A stretch of 29,830 nt of DNA from Candidatus Parcubacteria bacterium (GTDB lineage: Bacteria; Patescibacteriota; Minisyncoccia; Minisyncoccales; UBA6532). Positions within the stretch are counted from its first letter, which is position 1. Every line of letters begins with the position of its first letter. The notes beneath the pieces are model-generated. The model did not search any database. It saw only the letters and a list, made by a program, of their open reading frames with translations, and was not told the DNA's origin. A program made the position numbers and the translations under genes. Where the stretch lies: contig JAUSNC010000006.1 of NCBI GenBank assembly GCA_030645645.1, forward strand, positions 1 through 29,830, given 5' to 3'. Shown here one piece after another: positions 7,715 to 14,886 of the stretch.

Positions 7715-9118
7715 TTAAATTAAGGGTGTCCAAAGTTTTTTATATTTCTCGAACCTTGTTCCTATAAATATTCTCAGGAATTGGCGGGTTATGAAAATTG
7801 CAGAAAACATACTGACAATAATACCCAAAGAAAGGGTTAAGGCAAATCCCTTAATAAAACTGGTGCCTAAGCTGAAAAGAATAAATCCTACTATCAGACT
7901 GGTTAAATTACTGTCCCTAATTGAAGGCCATGCTCTCCTAAATGCCTCTTCTAAGGCCGTAGAAAAATCTTTATTTTCCGCCAATTCTTCCTTTAGCCTG
8001 GCGAAAATCAGAATATTGGCGTCTATTGCCATTCCTATAGAAAGGACAAATCCTCCTATTCCCGCCAGTGTCAAAGTAACCGGAATCAATTTAAATATAG
8101 ATAAAATAATGACTACATATATAAATAGAGCAATGGCTGCTAAAAGGCCCGGCAATTTATAAAAGATTATCATAAATATAACTATGGCCAGGAAACCATA
8201 TATGCCCGCTTTTAGAGATTTTTCAAGGGAAGATGCTCCTAAAGTAGGTCCTACTTTCTGTTGGGAAATCAAATTTATCGGTACTGGCAATGCTCCTGCG
8301 CTTAAATTTCTGGCTAAAGTTTTAGCTTCCTCAACCGTAAATTGGCCGGTAATTTGCGCTTCGCCTCCTGCAATAGCCTCCTGCACAACCGGTGCTGATA
8401 TTAATATATTATCTATATAAATTGCCAAAGGCTTTCCAATATTTCTGCCGGTCAAATCCTTAAATAGATCAGTTCCTTCCTTATTAAATTTAATGGAAAT
8501 TGAAGGTCTGTAGGTTGTTTGATCAAACGCCAGTTCAGATCTTTCCAGATAACGGCCGTTAAGATCGGTCGGTTTAAAATTAGGATCTTCCAATGCCAGT
8601 TGCCAATCAGGAATATTTTGTGCTTCCTCAAGAGATTTCCCTTCAACTTCTTTCTGCTTATCCAATATCATTTGGGTTTCTTCGCTTGATCGCTGCTCCC
8701 GGAATTCAAGGAAGGGAGTTTCTCCGATCATTTTTATTGCTTGCGCAGGATCCTGGACTCCGGCCAGCTCCACGAGCAATCTATAATGATCTCCCGCTTC
8801 TTCAACTTGGACAACGGGTTCCTGTACACCGAACAAATTAACTCTCCTTTCAATAACATCCCTCAATCCCTGCATTGCGGTATTATAATCGGCTTTATTT
8901 ACCTTGGACAAATCGGCGTCATAAAGAAGCTGAACTCCTCCTTCCAAATCCAAACCCATCCTGAATGGAACATCAAAAAAATGCGGGACAGCAAGTCCTA
9001 ATCTTGCATTCAAATAATCCATCCCTTGATTGAAATATTTGGGATAGCTGTAATTTCCGGCCAGAAATCCGAGAATGGCAACCGCGATAATTATTATAAC
9101 AACGTTATTTCTTTTCAT
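7715..9118 (-). CDS. secD: Protein translocase subunit SecD
   Basis: GLDLEGG, RRVNLFGVQEP, GALP, GMAIDANILIFARLKEE and DSN motifs. Confidence 0.96.
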   Translation of the reverse strand: MKRNNVVIIIIAVAILGFLAGNYSYPKYFNQGMDYLNARLGLAVPHFFDVPFRMGLDLEGGVQLLYDADLSKVNKADYNTAMQGLRDVIERRVNLFGVQEPVVQVEEAGDHYRLLVELAGVQDPAQAIKMIGETPFLEFREQRSSEETQMILDKQKEVEGKSLEEAQNIPDWQLALEDPNFKPTDLNGRYLERSELAFDQTTYRPSISIKFNKEGTDLFKDLTGRNIGKPLAIYIDNILISAPVVQEAIAGGEAQITGQFTVEEAKTLARNLSAGALPVPINLISQQKVGPTLGASSLEKSLKAGIYGFLAIVIFMIIFYKLPGLLAAIALFIYVVIILSIFKLIPVTLTLAGIGGFVLSIGMAIDANILIFARLKEELAENKDFSTALEEAFRRAWPSIRDSNLTSLIVGFILFSLGTSFIKGFALTLSLGIIVSMFSAIFITRQFLRIFIGTRFEKYKKLWTPLI

Positions 9119-9134
9119 TTTCTTTAATTAATAA

Positions 9135-9148
9135 CCGCCATAAGGCGG
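9135..9148. repeat. Short GC palindrome CCGCC-ATAA-GGCGG just upstream of secD
   Basis: Perfect 5-bp stem with 4-nt loop in an AT-rich intergenic region; function unknown. Confidence 0.4.
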
Positions 9149-9250
9149 ATTCTATTTAACTATATTCGCACAAATTAAAATTTTTTTCAACCTATAGATA
9201 ATCTATCTTAGTTAACTCTTGCATAAGAACATTATCGGTTACCTTTTATT

Positions 9251-9352
9251 TTATTTCCCATGGCACTTCATATTCGCACTGCTGTACTCAGTATTTCGTC
9301 GCCTGCACTCATCAACTACGCGTTATCATGCGCCATGACAACGCTTATATTT
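9251..9352 (-). repeat. Repeat unit A (att-like; contains two secA-end relics and a 25-bp palindrome)
   Basis: Minus strand: AAATATAAG-cgtTGTCATGG-CGCATGATAA-cgcg-TAGTTGA-21 nt-TGAGTAC-...-aagTGCCATGGGAAATAA. Palindrome at 9320-9344: GCGTTGTCATG/CATGATAACGC. Confidence 0.75.
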
Positions 9353-9361
9353 CTCTCGTTA

Positions 9362-9619
9362 TTAAAAATAAATATCGTGATCGCCAACGGCAAGGAGTAC
9401 TGCCTCGGCGCGGGACAAATATAAAAATACAATGCGAAACCGATAATTTATCGCAAAACTATAACGCCCCGCAAGGCGCCCATGCAATTTATGAACCTTT
9501 AATATGCTATGATTTTTACGATCTTGGAATAAACTTATTTTTTCAAGAATCTCCTCTCGAAGAGGCCTATTAAGCACCTTGAATTGACGTACAAAGTTGG
9601 GCGCGTAAGATATTTTCAT
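9362..9619 (-). CDS. RelE/ParE-superfamily type II toxin (HigB/YafQ-like)
   Basis: 85 aa; HKLHGRLAGRYSFAINYRFRIVF and C-terminal VGDHDIY; directly downstream of the antitoxin. Confidence 0.85.
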   Translation of the reverse strand: MKISYAPNFVRQFKVLNRPLREEILEKISLFQDRKNHSILKVHKLHGRLAGRYSFAINYRFRIVFLYLSRAEAVLLAVGDHDIYF

Positions 9620-9624
9620 GCGGG

Positions 9625-9846
9625 TTACGGCATTTTGCCCGCAAGTTTTTTGAGATTACCCCGCAATACCTTGCCTTCATGAACCTCTTGTTCCGACTTT
9701 AAAACCGCCACAACAGCCTGTTCTTCGGCAAGAAACCGAAGCGCTTTGCGCACCACCTCCGCCTTGTTTTGTGCAAACCCCTCTTTTACCAGCATGTCAA
9801 TAAATTCTTCCAGCGTGGGACTTAATGGAATTGATAATGTTGCCAT
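9625..9846 (-). CDS. Ribbon-helix-helix (ParD-like) antitoxin
   Basis: 73 aa; N-terminal beta strand TLSIPL followed by helices with the NKAEVVRKALR RHH signature; 5 nt upstream of the toxin. Confidence 0.8.
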   Translation of the reverse strand: MATLSIPLSPTLEEFIDMLVKEGFAQNKAEVVRKALRFLAEEQAVVAVLKSEQEVHEGKVLRGNLKKLAGKMP

Positions 9847-9863
9847 AGTTTTGTATATAATTA

Positions 9864-9917
9864 TATGATATTATAATATTACAATATCATACTATCAAAC
9901 CATAATCAATCTGTCAA
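9864..9917 (-). promoter_or_regulatory. TA promoter with overlapping palindromic operator
   Basis: TTGACA (9917-9912)-17 nt-TAGTAT (9894-9889), with extended TG. 28-bp near-perfect palindrome TATGATATT-A-TAATATTA-C-AATATCATA at 9864-9891. Confidence 0.8.
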
Positions 9918-9922
9918 GATTA

Positions 9923-9994
9923 TTATCTTCCATGGCATTTTTGGTACTCATCCCATTATAGAAATTGTCATGCGGGAAAAATTTCCTTATATTT
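9923..9994 (-). repeat. Repeat unit B (att-like; ends in secA-end relic YQKCHGR*)
   Basis: Minus strand: AAATATAAG-11 nt-CGCATGACAA-tttctataatggga-TGAGTAC-caaaaa-TGCCATGGAAGATAA. Confidence 0.75.
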
Positions 9995-10024
9995 ACTGAC
10001 TTTTTGATGTTTTTTCGAAAAACC

Positions 10025-10074
10025 TGTCATGTGTTTTTTCGTCAACTATGCCGGTTTATAGAAAATGTCATGCG
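10025..10074 (-). repeat. Partial repeat unit C
   Basis: Plus 10056-10074 TTATAGAAAATGTCATGCG matches 9956-9974 at 18/19, exactly 100 bp apart. Also has TAGTTGAC (minus 10048-10041) and another TGTCATG at 10025-10031. Confidence 0.7.
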
Positions 10075-10080
10075 AGCTTT

Positions 10081-10533
10081 TCAACCAGAAACCACATAGG
10101 CAAGGACATCGAAGCTTGGATCGTGAAATTCAATCATCTCATACTCTGGCCGCTTAATGAGGCGCAAATTATCAGGATGGTCGGATAGGTAATCTTTCTT
10201 GAAGGATTCATAACCTGTCTCGAAGTCATTACATCCAACCTGTGGGCGTTCTGGGTCGGGCCTTCTAATTCGCAGGTGTGTTATCTGATTTTTCCCAGCA
10301 ATAATGGGCTCATTTAGCTCAACTCGCGGGCCGTTATTGTAGTTATATAGCTTTCCCATTTCTTCCAATATCTTGGTTAGCTTTTCGAACTCAGCTTCCG
10401 AGTGGGCAAATATCGTTAATGATTTAATTGGTAATTCTTTGTCGATTACTTTCCTAGCCAACTCAGAAGTCCTGATGGCTACATACTGCACCGCCTCGAC
10501 CAACTCTTCTTTGTTCTGGATCGATTTTTCCAT
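10081..10533 (-). CDS. Hypothetical protein, 150 aa (possibly VOC/glyoxalase-like fold)
   Basis: Probable start MEKSIQNK at 10533, 4 nt after the secA stop; the longer ORF-track start overlaps secA. Motif LRIRRPDPERPQVG..DF. Fold call is tentative. Confidence 0.7.
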   Translation of the reverse strand: MEKSIQNKEELVEAVQYVAIRTSELARKVIDKELPIKSLTIFAHSEAEFEKLTKILEEMGKLYNYNNGPRVELNEPIIAGKNQITHLRIRRPDPERPQVGCNDFETGYESFKKDYLSDHPDNLRLIKRPEYEMIEFHDPSFDVLAYVVSG

Positions 10534-10537
10534 GATT

Positions 10538-13012
10538 TTATCTCCCATGACACTTCTTAAATTTCTTACCGCTTCCGCAGGGACAGGGATCGTTCCTGCC
10601 TGCAACGCTCACGGACTTATTTATAGAAGAATTATTACTGGTTTGTGAAACAAAATTCTGAATAGGATTTTTCTGTTCGCGCATTTCCGCCTTAATAATG
10701 GATTGCACAATACCGCTCTCCATATTTTTTAAAAGATTCTGGAACATCAGTCTTGACTCTCCTTTATATTCTATTAAAGGATCTTTTTGTCCGTACGCTC
10801 TCAACCTGACTGTATCGCGAAGATGCTCCATATTATCCAGATGTTCCATCCATAAAAAATCCAAAATCTTCAGACTGGAAAATTTTTCAAGACTGCGCAT
10901 ATTTTCACTTCCTATCTCTTTTTCTTTTTTTACATAATCTTCTTCCGAAACACCGGAATTTCTGAACATCTCCAGAATATCTTCCTTTAAGGTTCCATCC
11001 TGCTCTTTCTTTAAAATCTCTCCTCTTTTTCTATAAATCACGTCCCTGTGCTTATTTAAAACGTCGTCGTAATCCAGAACATGCTTTCTTAAATCAAAAT
11101 TTGCTCCTTCAATTTTCTCCTGAGCGGATTCAATAACTCCGGAAACCATTTTGGCTTCTATTGGTTCGTCTTCCGGCACTTTAAGCATTTCCATTATGGA
11201 TTTAATTCTGTCTCCACCGAAAATCCTCATTAAATCGTCTTCTAAAGAAATAAAGAATTGGGTGGAACCGGGATCTCCCTGCCTGCCTGATCTTCCTCGT
11301 AATTGATTATCTATTCTTCTCGCTTCATGCCTTTCAGTGCCTATCACATGGAGCCCGCCTTGCTCTGTAACTTTTTGAGCCTCCTCTGGGCTCAGCGGAT
11401 TCCCACCGAGAACGATATCCACTCCACGGCCTGCCATATTGGTGGCAATTGTTACTGCGCCGAATCTTCCTGCTTGGGCTATTATTTCTCCTTCTTGTTC
11501 ATGATGCTTTGCATTTAGAATCTTATGAGGGATACCTTCTATGTCCAATAGTTTTCCCAGATATTCGTTTTTCTCTATTGAAACAGTTCCAACTAGAACG
11601 GGCTGGCCTTTTGCATGCATTTCTTTTATTTCTCTTACCACTGCCCTAAACTTTCCCTCCCCTGTTTTATAAATTCTGTCCGGCAAATCATTACGAACCA
11701 TCGGAAGATGAGTGGGAACTATTGCAGTATCCAGTTTATATACCTTTTCAAATTCCTCGGCGGAAGTGGCGGCAGTACCTGTCATTCCTGCCAACTTCTT
11801 ATACATTCTGAAATAATTTTGAAACGTAATTGAGCCTAATGTTAAGGATTCCGGTTGTAATGTAACACCTTCTTTAGCTTCAATGGCCTGGTGCAGTCCG
11901 CCTGACCATCTGCGCCCCGGCATTACCCTGCCAGTAAACTCATCTACAATAATTACCTGTCCGTCTTTCACAATATAGTCCTTGTCTCTGGCAAAAAGGG
12001 GCTGACCGGTTTTTGAATTTATCGCCTGCGCTCTCAATGCCTGCTCCAGGTGATGCAAATATCTTATTCCTTTTTCCTGATAAATATCTTTCATTCCTAA
12101 AATCTCTTCAACCTTCTCTATTCCATGCTCAGTTATTGTTACCGCTCTCATTTTCTCATCAATTTCATAATCAAGACTGGGGTCCAACCGGCGTATTATT
12201 CCGGCAAATTCAGAATACATTTTTGATGACTCCGTATCAGGGGATGAAATAATCAGAGGAGTTCTTGCTTCATCAATCAGAATAGAATCAACCTCGTCAA
12301 CTATGGCAAAATTATATCCGCGCTGAACCTGATCTTTTAAGTCATACGCCATGTTGTTGCGTAAATAATCAAATCCGTATTCATTATTAGTTCCATAGGT
12401 TATATCCGCTGAATATGCTTCTTTTCTTGAACACGGCCTTAAAAAATCCTCAACTACTTTAAATGCGCCGAGTTCATCTCTTATTTTATCCATCTTTTCA
12501 TCCTGTTTTTTAAAAGCCGGGTCATACAGGAAAGATTGGTCATGGTTTATACATCCGATTGTTAGTCCTAAAAAGTTGTATATCTGACCCATCCACACGG
12601 CATCTCTTCTTGCCAAATAATCATTCACTGTTACCAGATGGCAACCTTCTCCTGTCAGCGCATTTAAATATACAGCCAAAGTAGCGGTTAATGTTTTCCC
12701 TTCTCCTGTTTTCATTTCAGCAATCTTTCCCTGGTGCAGAACTATTCCTCCGATAAGCTGAACATTAAAATGACGCTGATTCAAAGTTCTTTTACTCGCC
12801 TCTCTTACCAGGGCAAAGGCTTCAGGAAGAATATCATCAAGTGTTTTGCCTTTTTTAAGACTTTCCTTTAATTCGTCAGTTTTTAGCCGCAGATCTTCAT
12901 TAGAAAAACCCTCGAATTTTGGTTCGAGGCGATTTATCATCTCAATCACCGGCTGTAACTCCTTTATATATTTATCGTTGGCGTCTCCGAATATTTTGGT
13001 TAGAAATGACAT
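10538..13012 (-). CDS. secA: Preprotein translocase ATPase SecA with SEC-C motif
   Basis: MKTGEGKT, DEVDSILIDEARTPLIIS, TNMAGRGVDI, RRIDNQLRGRSGRQGDPG; C-terminal GRNDPCPCGSGKKFKKCHGR. Confidence 0.98.
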   Translation of the reverse strand: MSFLTKIFGDANDKYIKELQPVIEMINRLEPKFEGFSNEDLRLKTDELKESLKKGKTLDDILPEAFALVREASKRTLNQRHFNVQLIGGIVLHQGKIAEMKTGEGKTLTATLAVYLNALTGEGCHLVTVNDYLARRDAVWMGQIYNFLGLTIGCINHDQSFLYDPAFKKQDEKMDKIRDELGAFKVVEDFLRPCSRKEAYSADITYGTNNEYGFDYLRNNMAYDLKDQVQRGYNFAIVDEVDSILIDEARTPLIISSPDTESSKMYSEFAGIIRRLDPSLDYEIDEKMRAVTITEHGIEKVEEILGMKDIYQEKGIRYLHHLEQALRAQAINSKTGQPLFARDKDYIVKDGQVIIVDEFTGRVMPGRRWSGGLHQAIEAKEGVTLQPESLTLGSITFQNYFRMYKKLAGMTGTAATSAEEFEKVYKLDTAIVPTHLPMVRNDLPDRIYKTGEGKFRAVVREIKEMHAKGQPVLVGTVSIEKNEYLGKLLDIEGIPHKILNAKHHEQEGEIIAQAGRFGAVTIATNMAGRGVDIVLGGNPLSPEEAQKVTEQGGLHVIGTERHEARRIDNQLRGRSGRQGDPGSTQFFISLEDDLMRIFGGDRIKSIMEMLKVPEDEPIEAKMVSGVIESAQEKIEGANFDLRKHVLDYDDVLNKHRDVIYRKRGEILKKEQDGTLKEDILEMFRNSGVSEEDYVKKEKEIGSENMRSLEKFSSLKILDFLWMEHLDNMEHLRDTVRLRAYGQKDPLIEYKGESRLMFQNLLKNMESGIVQSIIKAEMREQKNPIQNFVSQTSNNSSINKSVSVAGRNDPCPCGSGKKFKKCHGR

Positions 13013-13082: not shown

Positions 13083-13460
13083 TTAATGGATTATCAGCTT
13101 AACTTTCATCTTTTTCGCCTTAAAGAAACTCTTTGCGTATTTTGCCAATTTCTTTGAATCAAAAATGCTGCAGGAAAAAATATTCAAAAATGCTGTACTG
13201 TCATTCTCTATAAAGTGGCCTGTCATAGAACTTACTGAAAGGAATTGCAGAAAAGAATAACCCATGCCAAATAGGCCTCCTCCCATAAAGCGCTTGATAC
13301 GCGAGGGTCCGTATGTTTTAAGCTTCACTTTTTTACTTGCTTCCTGAATAAACTCTTTTATTTTTGATTTGGAGGATATTGTTTTAATATCACATTTGAA
13401 AAGTTCCAGAATGAGTTCCATTCCGTAAATTTTCCTCCCTTCCTTATTTCTTTTATGCAT
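13083..13460 (-). CDS. S-adenosylmethionine decarboxylase (SpeH/SpeD)-like pyruvoyl proenzyme
   Basis: 125 aa; G-x-x-L-I-L-E-L N-terminus, GYS...LSVSSMTGH (aligns with LSESHISIH), NIFSC. Substrate uncertain. Confidence 0.75.
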   Translation of the reverse strand: MHKRNKEGRKIYGMELILELFKCDIKTISSKSKIKEFIQEASKKVKLKTYGPSRIKRFMGGGLFGMGYSFLQFLSVSSMTGHFIENDSTAFLNIFSCSIFDSKKLAKYAKSFFKAKKMKVKLIIH

Positions 13461-13581
13461 ATATTTTCTGAATTGAAATCTTTACAGCAAGATTGAAAGC
13501 TGTTACGATTTATTCTAAAAATTTATTATTTATTAATTATTAATTTCTCTACCACATTGTCAGTGTGGAAAATTGAAATTA

Positions 13582-14886
13582 CTATAAATATCCCCAGGTC
13601 TGGAGCTTATCACTTTCCTGATACCATCTCACTCCTATATCAACCCTGTAAAACATATTCTGCAATCTTATATTTTTGATGTGGTTATATGCTTGTTTTC
13701 TTGCCTCCTCCACGGTTTGCCCGCACCCTGTAACCACAAGGGCATATCCAGATTTACCAGCTAATTTCAGTCTTCCTTCAACCATTTTAACATCTCCAAG
13801 ATGAATTCCATTTAAATTCGGGTCGGGCTGTCGAAATAAAATAGACAAGTCTTTATATGTAGAAATATCTTCTTTATCGGCAGAAACAAAAGGAATAAGG
13901 GCGATGACCACCCCGACCTGAAACCCGACTTTGGTTTTCAATTCAAAATTTTCTCCCTTGGCCAGACGATAAAAGAATTCGCCTTGAGGAGTGAGCATAC
14001 CTTCCATCTGTATGCTTATTGTGGGGTATCCGAATCTTGATGTGAATTCCAAAGGATAAATCCCCCTTCCGTTGGCAATGCAATTGATGTCAAAATAACC
14101 GACGTATCCGGATTTCGCCAATTCGGCTTTCATCTTTTCCAGGGTTTCCCTGAAAATGGCATTGGGTCGCGACCAAAACATGGATGTTCCCATCTCGCCC
14201 GTGAATGGCCCTATTTCTCCGGGAAATAATCTTTTGTGTTCAAAATTGACATTAATGGGATAAATAAAATCCTTTCCGTTGAAAAAAGCTCCTACCGCCA
14301 CTTCCACTCCGGCAACGTGTTTTTGCAGCTGAAAAGATTTCACCTTATTGGATAAAGATTTTTTATTAGAATCTATGATTTCCAAAAGATCTTTTCCGTC
14401 TTCCTCTTCTCCAACAAAAAGCAAACCATGCAAATCTCCTCCTCCAATAACATAATTTGGCTTAAAAACGTAGCGGCCGGGATTCTCCTTAATAAATTTT
14501 ATAGCCGAATCCAAATCAGAAAAATCCCAATGTGGCAGAACCAACATTCCGGTTTTTTTCATTTCCGTCTGGCCAAATTCCCTGTCTTCTTCCAGCTTAT
14601 CGGTATAGACGCTCCCACCCACAACTAGCTTTCCTTTCGCCCTTAATTTATCAGCATCTGCACCAAATCCTACATCATCAAAAATGACAACATCTGCCCA
14701 GTCAACCTGTTCTTCCCAGCTGCTGACTTTTTCCAAGATGCCGTCATAAACATCTATGTCGTCCTTCTCTTTTATATATACTTTAACTTGATGGCCTTCT
14801 TTCTGTATTTGCCAAGCCAAATCGCCGCTCAGACTTTCCCATGAAACGAATAAGAATTTTTTTGGAGTAGAATTATTATTATTCAT
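13582..14886 (-). CDS. Divergent PurD-like ATP-grasp ligase
   Basis: EHKRLFPGEIGPFTGEMG, EFTSRFGYP and YRVDIG resemble PurD motifs; lacks the N-terminal GxGGREH of bona fide PurD. Confidence 0.8.
   Translation of the reverse strand: MNNNNSTPKKFLFVSWESLSGDLAWQIQKEGHQVKVYIKEKDDIDVYDGILEKVSSWEEQVDWADVVIFDDVGFGADADKLRAKGKLVVGGSVYTDKLEEDREFGQTEMKKTGMLVLPHWDFSDLDSAIKFIKENPGRYVFKPNYVIGGGDLHGLLFVGEEEDGKDLLEIIDSNKKSLSNKVKSFQLQKHVAGVEVAVGAFFNGKDFIYPINVNFEHKRLFPGEIGPFTGEMGTSMFWSRPNAIFRETLEKMKAELAKSGYVGYFDINCIANGRGIYPLEFTSRFGYPTISIQMEGMLTPQGEFFYRLAKGENFELKTKVGFQVGVVIALIPFVSADKEDISTYKDLSILFRQPDPNLNGIHLGDVKMVEGRLKLAGKSGYALVVTGCGQTVEEARKQAYNHIKNIRLQNMFYRVDIGVRWYQESDKLQTWGYL

Follow-up and report, generated by a model that had tools for sequence, protein, structure and literature searches.

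The last codons of secA, an essential gene of protein secretion, are followed in a genome of a Candidatus Parcubacteria bacterium (assembly GCA_030645645.1, contig JAUSNC010000006.1) by three further copies of the same gene end, and the question is how these copies came to lie among the small genes that separate secA from secD. The window analysed here is the whole stretch of 29,830 nt, positions 1 to 29,830 of that contig. A preliminary description, made from the sequence alone, had reported the copies and proposed that the secA tail is a repeatedly used attB-like site behind which gene blocks accumulate in an integron-like array, with an integrase acting in trans. The reported observation was confirmed, as all four sequences are present at the positions given. 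The proposed interpretation is supported only in part, since repeated insertion at the secA tail is backed whereas dedicated integron-like machinery was not found. The features of the region are as follows, in the order in which they are read on the minus strand.

10538–13012, minus strand: secA (824 aa), with a live SEC-C tail ending CPCGSGKKFKKCHGR before the stop codon.
10538–10564, minus strand: the live tail (KFKKCHGR-stop), with core TGTCATGG at 10552–10545, then GAGATAA and AATC before the next ATG; the putative head (attB/attL-like end) of the array.
10081–10533, minus strand: cargo 1, a 150-aa gene (orf150) without a Pfam family.
9923–10083, minus strand: unit A, a 160-nt non-coding 3' module of cassette 1, ending in relic c1 ((E)YQKCHGR-stop at 9946–9923, core 9937–9930, stop 9925–9923).
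9870–9917, minus strand: predicted promoter(s) and palindromic operator of the toxin–antitoxin (TA) cassette, starting 12 nt after core c1.
9625–9846, minus strand: cargo 2a, a 73-aa ribbon-helix-helix (RHH), ParD-like antitoxin.
9362–9619, minus strand: cargo 2b, an 85-aa RelE/YafQ/HigB-like toxin.
9320–9352, minus strand: relic c2 (KYKRCHGA-stop at 9352–9326, core 9340–9333), in frame just behind the TAA TAA of the toxin and inside the hairpin GCGTTGTCATG-GCG-CATGATAACGC (9344–9320).
9258–9332, minus strand: unit B, a 75-nt gene-less unit running from just after core c2 to the end of core c3.
9251–9268, minus strand: relic c3 (KCHGK-stop, core 9265–9258), probably the original secA end of this lineage.
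7715–9118, minus strand: secD, the conserved downstream anchor of the variable region.

The 8-nt core TG[CT]CATGG occurs five times in the window, always on the minus strand; four copies (10552, 9937, 9340 and 9265) are those of the live tail and the three relics, while the fifth (4719) lies inside a coding gene. The longer word AARTGYCATGG occurs four times in the whole genome of 505,551 bp, three of them here, and the reversed-pattern control gave none. In 151 genomes of the order, AARTGYCAYGGNNNNTRR gave 49 hits against 8 for the control, and genomes with several hits have them clustered on one strand within 0.2–1.4 kb. Within the K-C-H-G codons, all five differences from secA are synonymous, where the preliminary description had stated that they were mostly so. 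It had also stated that c1 keeps the AATC that follows the secA stop codon, and this requires a small correction, as the AATC is offset by one T (TAA-T-AATC).

Pfam searches assigned SecA_DEAD, P-loop_SecA, SecA_SW, SecA_PP_bind and SEC-C (residues 806–824) to secA, and SecD families to secD. The product of orf150 gave no Pfam hit but belongs to a conserved Patescibacteria family (330 homologues at 62–89% identity), and is YecM/VOC-like by language-model features only (YecM lead, score 0.96). The antitoxin matched ParD_antitoxin just above the cut-off (E 3.6e-4, 21.3 bits against 21). The HigB-like match of the toxin was weak (17.5 bits, below the cut-off), but it has 125 homologues, which are named RelE/StbE or YafQ mRNA interferase in the source records. 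Upstream of the TA pair are the promoter-like sequences TTGACA-17-TAGTAT (with TG) and TTGATA-17-TATAAT, together with two palindromes.

For comparison, 151 related loci were analysed (loci and contigs are denoted by L numbers). The order secA, gap, secD, secF and a 340-aa gene is kept in 93 related loci, but the gap varies from 7 to 5292 nt (median 950) and contains 153 ORFs in about 66 families, 144 of them co-oriented with secA. Tail relics occur among the cargo in 26 of 151 loci and are strongly enriched there, with 36 in-frame relics on the secA strand and 2 on the other in 209 kb of gap, against 8 and 7 in 1.38 Mb of other sequence. Fixed cargo in relatives, variable cargo without relics, and equally good matches in controls had each been named beforehand as grounds for rejecting the idea, and it survived all three, since the cargo is variable, relics are present among it and controls did not give such matches. 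The pattern is seen in many related ultra-small groundwater bacteria.

Several pairs of loci represent states before and after insertion, in which the old tail is displaced and a new one is brought in. L124 is equal to L120 (secA 94% identical) plus 343 nt inserted exactly after TGTTGCGG; this gene-less insert starts with TAAATAA and ends with TGCCACGG. From position 958 onward, L186 is equal to the live tail and flank of L156 at 98.9% identity, although L186 now has a different tail type. L141 is equal to L015 plus about 1.15 kb inserted at −22 relative to the secA stop, and in L127 a tail relic plus first gene, 97.8% identical to L161, sits between two genes that are adjacent in L150. Relics also match live tails of other genomes. 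Relic c3 matches the live secA ends of L006 (20/20), L016 (19/19) and L007 (17/17), and the 132 nt from c3 to secD fit the 'empty' gaps of 7–150 nt seen in 12 relatives. Relic c2 looks like a displaced earlier live tail, as the same hairpin closes the live secA of L189, L190 and L057. Across this hairpin, which spans C-H-G-x-stop, four stem pairs carry compensatory changes, a level reached by 0–5 of 500 shuffles depending on the measure.

The units are modular. The 150-aa gene travels as one module (tail, TAAAATC, gene, and the 160-nt 3' unit ending in the core) and appears in four other contexts, one of which is not next to secA. The tail, TAAAATC and ATG junction precedes the closest orf150 homologues in L194, L197 and L202, and the module recurs in L194, L202 and L198; in L197 it lies between macA-like and macB-like genes, with five cores in 1.5 kb. 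The 5' block of unit A, CGCATGACATTTTC (10074–10061), is repeated at 9974–9961 and is an inverted copy of the 3' core, with 91% of cells pairing across the alignment against 40–54% when the partner is slid. Unit A is homologous to modules in L197 (two copies), L202, L194, L198, L182 and L018. The TA pair recurs behind secA in four other genomes; in L226, L229 and L230 the cassette starts right after the GG of the live tail, with the same promoter/operator, and in L193 it lies between secA and secD. Some of these TA insertions leave no relic. Unit B is about 80% identical over 95 nt to the last unit of the 343-nt insertion in L124, and contigs of other organisms in two sister samples match 9248–9354 at 85–90% but differ on both sides. 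No other copy of unit B was found in this genome, and it matched no Rfam family.

A recombinase was sought but not found in the window, in any of the 93 gaps, or near secA in 151 genomes, and no intI-like gene lies next to any array; the single Xer-like gene per genome always sits elsewhere. A candidate for an integrase acting in trans comes from two related viral contigs, L212 and L219, which carry a tyrosine integrase (PF00589, E 7.5e-25), a small ORF (possible HTH regulator, read by eye only) and then an isolated site reading CGKKYKKCHGS-stop. This site is 32/34 (94%) identical to the live tail of L013, whose secA–secD gap is empty at 88 nt. Action in trans is plausible, but the link rests on these two contigs, their host is inferred from the 34-nt match alone, and the L212-type integrase has no homologue in the 160 secA loci. 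Among the assembled contigs of the source sample, at about 6.6x word depth and without raw reads (a weak test), one contig spans the region unchanged and none skips a cassette or shows an alternative junction.

Taken together, the best reading, held with moderate confidence, is tandem accretion of integrase-less cassettes at an attB-like secA tail. In this clade of Patescibacteria (Nealsonbacteria/Minisyncoccales-like), the last 20–60 nt of secA would act as the insertion point. Incoming DNA would recombine within the tail, supply a replacement G-x-stop end or a whole new tail, and push the previous tail downstream as a scar, so that repeated events build an array with the newest unit nearest to secA. 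The window would then contain three units, namely the YecM-like gene with unit A (10544–9930), the self-promoted ParD/RelE-type TA pair (9929–9333) and the gene-less unit B (9332–9258), followed by c3 as the ancestral secA end and the ancestral secA–secD spacer. The units are read as comparable to CIMEs (decayed integrative elements that keep their att sites but have lost their recombination genes), and would be deposited or moved by tyrosine integrases of phage-like elements whose attP imitates the secA tail. The repeats, the variable cargo, the displaced tails, the modular cassettes and the hairpin across the stop codon are direct results of the analysis, while the enzyme, the crossover point within or near TGYCAYGG and the order of the insertions are inferred. 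Two further points weigh against this reading. Junctions are not at one fixed position (−7, −20, −22, −35, about −60, and −125/−188 nt before the stop), which fits several different enzymes, or homology-driven events, better than one site-specific system, and one-gene and gene-less units of 51–75 nt are far smaller than known decayed prophages or ICEs.

A possible but less likely alternative is that no site-specific enzyme is involved, and that DNA taken up from relatives recombines through RecA with secA as a long homologous anchor, the far end joining at short homology with a tail-like repeat (homology-facilitated illegitimate recombination, or unequal crossing-over between tail copies). A spare tail copy would then serve as portable homology by which arrays grow and shuffle. 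RecA is present, while no tyrosine, serine or Y1 recombinase was found in this genome, and the variable junctions and the relics with synonymous variants typical of other strains' live tails fit this view. In L186 compared with L156, the last 125–188 nt of secA itself were replaced by a divergent allele while the relic and its flank are 98.9% identical, as an anchor-plus-short-homology event would give, and the L127 insert is flanked by 9–10-nt GAAATAAAA repeats. However, the tail homology is only about 20–40 nt, and secA bodies in the sampled relatives are 60–73% identical to this one, whereas efficient RecA exchange would need much closer donors. Nor does this model explain the conserved hairpin with compensatory changes, the conserved 3' module with its inverted core, the exact junction after GG in L124/L120, the array outside secA in L197, or the integrase beside a tail-like site in L212/L219.

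A true cassette system analogous to an integron is doubtful. Here the secA tail would play the part of attI, units A and B would be attC-like structured sites (an inverse core plus a core that fold together), and an unrecognised recombinase encoded elsewhere would insert and excise single cassettes. The succession of core, cargo, inverse core and core, the 13-bp inverted repeat of unit A, the covarying hairpin, the co-orientation of most cargo and the existence of gene-less units favour it, as does the occurrence of unit A behind at least two cargo types in both orientations (orf150, and reverse-strand small ORFs in L182 and L197, leaving aside the cargo of the copies in L018 and L202). On the other hand, no candidate enzyme was found, unit A occurs in only 3 of 151 genomes of the order, its covariation is no better than in shuffles, the TA cassette has no 3' module, junctions vary, and no circles or skipping sequences were seen in the source-sample contigs. 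It is very unlikely that the repeats are small transposable elements, either MITE-like with terminal inverted repeats or hairpin elements of the IS200/IS605 or REP-RAYT type moved by a Y1 (HUH) transposase, that happen to target TGYCAYGG. Unit A has inverted repeats at its ends, hairpins are present, Y1_Tnp genes are common in the order (77 of 151 genomes, up to 22 copies) and one sits in the L182 gap, but this genome has none, the L182 gene has its own, unrelated hairpins, and 3 of the 6 array-bearing genomes seen in the AARTGYCAYGGNNNNTRR search have a Y1_Tnp match, about the background rate. The units are also not dispersed (one locus per genome), and no target-site duplication pattern typical of DDE elements is present. 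Least likely of all is that nothing mobile is involved and that the look-alikes are chance matches, remains of other small SEC-C-motif genes, or a repeated regulatory or RNA motif. The copies are short (18–27 nt) and AT-rich after the core, and SEC-C motifs occur in other proteins, yet the counts against controls argue against chance, relics continue into flanks 98–99% identical to the true secA downstream flank of other genomes, no Rfam family matches, and the relics are not in a constant frame relative to secA, which excludes read-through.

The pattern was not found described in print, but it can be compared with several known systems. Chromosomal hotspots of gene flux, maintained by homologous recombination, likewise place a hypervariable region between two conserved core genes, here secA and secD, mostly without mobile-element genes, but they are not known to leave ordered, in-frame copies of the upstream gene's last codons between the cargo genes, or to carry conserved hairpin modules. 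Integrons (IntI, attI and attC-bounded gene cassettes) share arrays of mostly co-oriented single-gene cassettes behind one fixed site, a cassette-borne 3' element with an inverse core and a core that can fold together, and TA cassettes with their own promoter inside the array. They differ in that no intI gene lies next to the secA array, the core is TGYCAYGG and not GTTRRRY, the head is the coding end of an essential gene rather than attI, not every cassette has a 3' element, and there is no experimental or read evidence of cassette circles. Temperate phages and genomic islands integrate into the 3' end of tRNA, tmRNA or protein genes and carry a surrogate gene end in attP. L212 and L219 show this classic layout of integrase, small ORF and a site mimicking the gene end, and the displaced tails look like attR scars, although only cassette-sized remnants, and no prophage or island of normal size, lie behind secA in the window. 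The closest parallel is the tandem accretion of integrative elements and their decayed, integrase-less derivatives (CIMEs, microCIMEs) at the 3' end of a conserved gene, such as ICESt1/ICESt3 at fda and elements at tRNA-Lys in streptococci (PMC7563491). In both cases the target is the 3' end of an essential gene that is restored by the incoming DNA, direct repeats of the gene end bracket each unit, several units sit in tandem, and most lack recombination genes and would depend on an enzyme supplied in trans. What is new is the target, the SEC-C tail of secA, and the host group, Patescibacteria; the units also differ in being tiny (one gene, a TA pair, or 51–75 gene-less nt), no conjugation or mobilisation genes occur anywhere, no integrase-bearing partner was seen in any array, and the junction positions vary.

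The locus was re-examined from the sequence, and the gene order on the minus strand is as follows:
13012-10538, minus strand: secA
10533-10081, minus strand: a 150-aa ORF (orf150)
9846-9625, minus strand: a putative ribbon-helix-helix (RHH) antitoxin
9619-9362, minus strand: a putative RelE-like toxin
9118-7715, minus strand: secD

The preliminary description had reported three further copies of the secA 3' end among these genes, and this observation held: the secA end and the three look-alikes (relics c1 to c3, numbered away from secA) are exactly where it placed them. The shared 8-nt core TG[CT]CATGG occurs five times in the window, always on the minus strand. Four copies lie at 10552 (secA), 9937 (c1), 9340 (c2) and 9265 (c3), while the fifth is inside an unrelated coding gene. 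The longer word AARTGYCATGG occurs four times in the whole 505-kb genome, three of them here, and the reversed control gave no hit. In the K-C-H-G codons all five differences from secA are synonymous. The clustering is therefore real. The upstream side of secA is variable too, as an ATP-grasp (PurD-like) gene and a 125-aa gene lie between hpf and secA in the window (13083-14886), whereas in several relatives hpf sits directly before secA.

Scans with SecA returned 80 species-level genomes and 80 metagenome contigs (loci of relatives, designated by L numbers), with SecA identities of 45-73%. In 93 loci the order secA, gap, secD, secF, 340-aa gene is kept, but the gap ranges from 7 to 5292 nt (median 950), and twelve loci are essentially empty. 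The gaps hold 153 ORFs of 80 aa or more, of which 144 are co-oriented with secA, and these fall into 66 families. DUF1614, just upstream of secD, is the only common family (43 loci), and the rest are small enzymes including NUDIX, HD, HAD, Ham1, Maf, HIT, DUF84, ASCH, CutA1 and methyltransferases. Across the gaps of L001-L187 the cargo is rich in nucleotide house-cleaning and small hydrolase families (NUDIX in 5 families, HD in 3, plus Ham1, Maf, DUF84, HIT and metallophosphoesterase), and also includes one histidyl-tRNA synthetase and a LexA-methylase fusion. Fixed synteny of the cargo had been named beforehand as evidence against a cassette array, but the cargo is variable and not in fixed synteny.

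In-frame tail ends (C-[HC]-G plus 0-2 residues and a stop, or CC[WYF]P[KR]) were counted in the same loci. In 209 kb of secA-downstream sequence there are 36 on the secA strand and 2 on the other, while the remaining 1.38 Mb contains 8 and 7, respectively. At least one relic is carried by 26 of 151 loci, and nucleotide alignments found further relics of 20-62 nt. The live tails are of a short type (GSGKKYKKCHG), a long type (DGRPIKYKHCHG) and a type reading CCxPKYG. Many relics match the live tail of another genome better than the tail of their own; for example, c3 equals the live ends of L006, L016 and L007. In whole genomes of the order, the tail word is either single or clustered on one strand within 0.2-1.4 kb. 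A different arrangement is seen in genome G090, where three identical copies of AAATGCCATGGCAATTAA occur (contig C3, 56979-57656, and contig C14, 7759), two of them inverted and 660 nt apart. In L044 (8478-8820) a composite unit consisting of a long-type tail, a spacer with a GTCC...GGAC hairpin, and a short-type tail is duplicated in tandem, followed by two more relics that flank an uncharacterised 122-aa ORF and a 376-aa ORF. In L226 (4053-4075) a tail relic (KCHGK-stop) overlaps the start of a CutA1 gene, and the ATG inside CCATGG serves as the start codon.

Pairs of loci with and without an insertion show how tails are displaced. L124 and L120 share 94% identical secA, but L124 has 343 extra nt exactly after TGTTGCGG. 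The insert begins TAAATAA, which completes G-K-stop, ends in TGCCACGG, and contains four tail relics and no gene; the original GAAGTAG and flank follow it. L186 carries a different tail type followed by about 1 kb, after which comes a stretch 98.9% identical to the live tail and flank of L156, while the secA bodies of the two are 92.7% identical up to 125-188 nt before the stop. L141 equals L015 plus about 1.15 kb inserted 22 nt before the stop, and here the new tail has no zinc finger. The SecA proteins of L141, L017 and L032 all end without the zinc-finger tail (for example, GLVNSEEHQRLLNKK and stop), and since in L141 this follows an insertion into the tail, the SEC-C motif seems dispensable in some of these bacteria. 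In L127, a tail relic plus the first downstream gene of an L161-like genome (97.8%) lies between two genes that are adjacent in L150. Insertions therefore do displace tails, but the junctions are not at one position: in L124/L120 the junction falls exactly after the GG, while other events lie at -20, -22, -35 and -125/-188 nt. An integrative element at a gene 3' end would be expected to have a fixed crossover segment shared by attL and attR.

The units of the window are modules found elsewhere. In the first cassette, orf150 belongs to a conserved Patescibacteria family (330 hits, 62-89% identity) that has no Pfam family and is YecM-like by language-model features only. Its closest homologues keep the same layout of tail, TAAAATC, ATG ... 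stop, and then a 130-160-nt non-coding unit (unit A) ending in AARTGYCATGG. This layout is seen behind a different live tail plus a 60-nt spacer in L194, at a contig start in L202, behind secA in L198-L200, and in L197. A search of genome contigs with orf150 returned only 5 loci. The orf150 protein reaches 85-89% identity in genomes found in searches where the best SecA match was 73%, which fits either strong constraint or recent transfer. In L197 (814-3014) the module lies away from secA, between a HlyD/MacA-like gene and ABC/MacB-like genes, in a 2.2-kb array of five tail-like cores that also holds three small reverse-strand ORFs and is headed by a 200-nt G+C-rich non-coding stretch with no Rfam match. 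In a nucleotide alignment of its copies, unit A also follows reverse-oriented small ORFs in L182 and L197, and further copies occur in L018 and, as a second one, in L202. The 5' block of unit A is an inverted copy of its 3' core, with 91% of cells pairing against 40-54% in slid controls, but covariation is no better than in shuffles. The unit is rare, being carried by 3 of 151 genomes of the order.

The second cassette is the toxin-antitoxin (TA) pair. Assignment of the pair as type II (ParD/RelE-YafQ) rests on weak matches, as the Pfam ParD_antitoxin match is just at the cut-off and the HigB-like match is below it, while homologues are named RelE/StbE or YafQ by their sources. The pair and its promoter and palindromic operator, which are conserved in four genomes, start directly after the GG of the live tail in L226, L229 and L230; the pair lies second in L227, and between secA and secD in L193. 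These copies have no relic behind the toxin. Unit B, the gene-less unit between c2 and c3, is about 80% identical to the last unit of the L124 insertion, and contigs of other organisms in two sister samples match only this stretch. No other copies of unit B were found in this genome, and pattern scans of species genomes for it (TAGTTGA..TGAGTAC..TGYCATGG) gave only chance hits, while a 33-nt consensus gave none. A hammerhead or other ribozyme in unit B (UGAUGAG ... CGAAA look-alike) was considered and rejected, as the core and stems do not fit and Rfam returned nothing at E <= 10.

Relic c2 lies in a hairpin, GCGTTGTCATG-GCG-CATGATAACGC. The same hairpin closes the live secA of L189, L190 and L057, and recurs at relics in L124 and L197. 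The outer stem differs between copies (GCGT/ACGC, GCAT/ATGC, AAGCAA/TTGCTT, GAGA/TCTC), and four pairs carry compensatory changes, a level reached by 0-5 of 500 shuffles depending on the measure, with low values in the slid controls. The hairpin has no T-run, and may act either in DNA or in RNA. In L189 and L190 the live tail with its hairpin is followed 45-55 nt later by a second pseudo-tail, which is the same composite as c2, unit B and c3 in the window, and c2 through c3 is therefore read as a displaced earlier secA end. Stop-codon read-through giving an extended SecA was considered and rejected, as c2 and c3 are in frame in the window and in L124 but not in L189 or L190. The CATGG of the tail is in frame as a start for orf150, but homologues fix its start at the annotated ATG; supply of the start codon by the tail does seem true for CutA1 in L226.

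Searches for a responsible enzyme found RecA but no tyrosine (PF00589), serine or Y1 (PF01797) recombinase in the genome, which is 88% complete. However, 137 of 151 genomes of the order have about one Xer-like gene, never near the secA tail, and its absence here is probably an assembly gap. No tyrosine recombinase was found among the cargo of the 93 gaps. Y1 transposase genes are common in the order (77 of 151 genomes, with up to 22 copies) but show no association with arrays. One of them, a 215-aa Y1_Tnp (IS200/RAYT-like) gene, sits in the secA-secD gap of L182 (6490-7220), and has its own hairpin, CTTAGAAAC-N4-GTTTCTAAG, before, inside and after it. In IMG/VR, two related viral contigs (L212 and L219) carry a tyrosine integrase (L212:7020-7967, minus strand) and a small ORF (a possible HTH regulator, read by eye only). 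About 300 nt behind the integrase gene lies an isolated site reading CGKKYKKCHGS-stop (around L212:6690-6760), which is 32/34 identical to the live tail of L013, a relative with an empty gap. Other viral contigs begin or end within a secA tail. The preliminary description had proposed that an integrase would act in trans, and these contigs give that hypothesis a concrete candidate, but on thin evidence, as there are only two related contigs, their host is not proven, and integrase activity on the site is inferred from sequence alone.

The best supported reading, held with moderate confidence, is that the secA tail is an attB-like hotspot, and that the window holds three integrase-less units stacked by tandem accretion, with phage-type integrases as the likely agents. 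The earlier interpretation, of a repeatedly used attB-like site behind which gene blocks accumulate in an integron-like array, is partly supported. The repeated tails, the variable cargo, the displacement of tails by insertions and the recurrence of the units elsewhere are shown by the sequences, while the enzyme, and the activities of the integrase and the TA pair, are inferred. A RecA or short-homology route fits the variable junctions and the L186 mosaic, but is considered unlikely to be the main explanation. A more novel possibility, also judged unlikely although not excluded, is that candidate-phyla bacteria hold a gene-capture system that works like an integron but has no integron parts. 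In this view, the coding end of secA would serve as the docking site, one-gene cassettes would carry their own foldable inverse-core/core module (units A and B), and a recombinase not yet recognised, or the single Xer-like enzyme of the host, would insert and excise them, giving these minimal genomes a swappable shelf of small enzymes and TA pairs.

Patescibacteria have tiny genomes and few recognisable mobile elements, so how they gain genes is an open question. A fixed docking point at the end of an essential gene, refilled again and again with one-gene units, many of them nucleotide house-cleaning enzymes (NUDIX, HD, Ham1, Maf, HIT) or TA pairs, would be a concrete and testable route of gene gain. 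Literature searches on integration at the secA end, on CPR islands or integrons, and on secA-secD variability returned nothing relevant. Tail relics also provide a practical marker that flags recently acquired genes in metagenome bins, and the same repeats may explain why assemblies break behind secA. If an integrase with a secA-tail attP is confirmed, it would be a candidate tool for site-specific insertion in organisms that so far have no genetics.

Integrons have an intI gene adjacent to the array, and none was found here. Their attC sites are imperfect palindromes with an inverse core and a core (RYYYAAC ... GTTRRRY) at the 3' end of each cassette; unit A has a pairing inverse core and core, without covariation above that of shuffles, but its core sequence differs from GTTRRRY, and the TA cassette has no such module. 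Arrays do differ by whole units between relatives (L124/L120), while no circles or cassette-skipping joints appear in the source sample, for which only assembled contigs at about 6.6x word depth could be compared, one of them identical across 8500-11242. The locus is not the dif-like site at the replication terminus that is expected of IMEX or Xer-dif modules, since GC skew stays negative, without a switch, across the locus and genes on both sides are co-oriented; in the complete chromosome behind L012, secA lies about 70 kb into 517 kb as the record is numbered. IS200/IS605 or REP-RAYT elements would require a Y1 (HUH) transposase and dispersed hairpin copies, but this genome has neither a PF01797 match nor other copies of units A or B. 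A MITE would show terminal inverted repeats plus a target-site duplication in many dispersed copies, and although inverted ends are present, there is only one locus per genome. The closest parallel is with integrative elements at a gene 3' end and the accretion of CIMEs behind conserved genes in streptococci (PMC7563491): direct repeats of the 3' end of the target gene flank each unit, and the gene stays intact, with secA keeping a full SEC-C motif.
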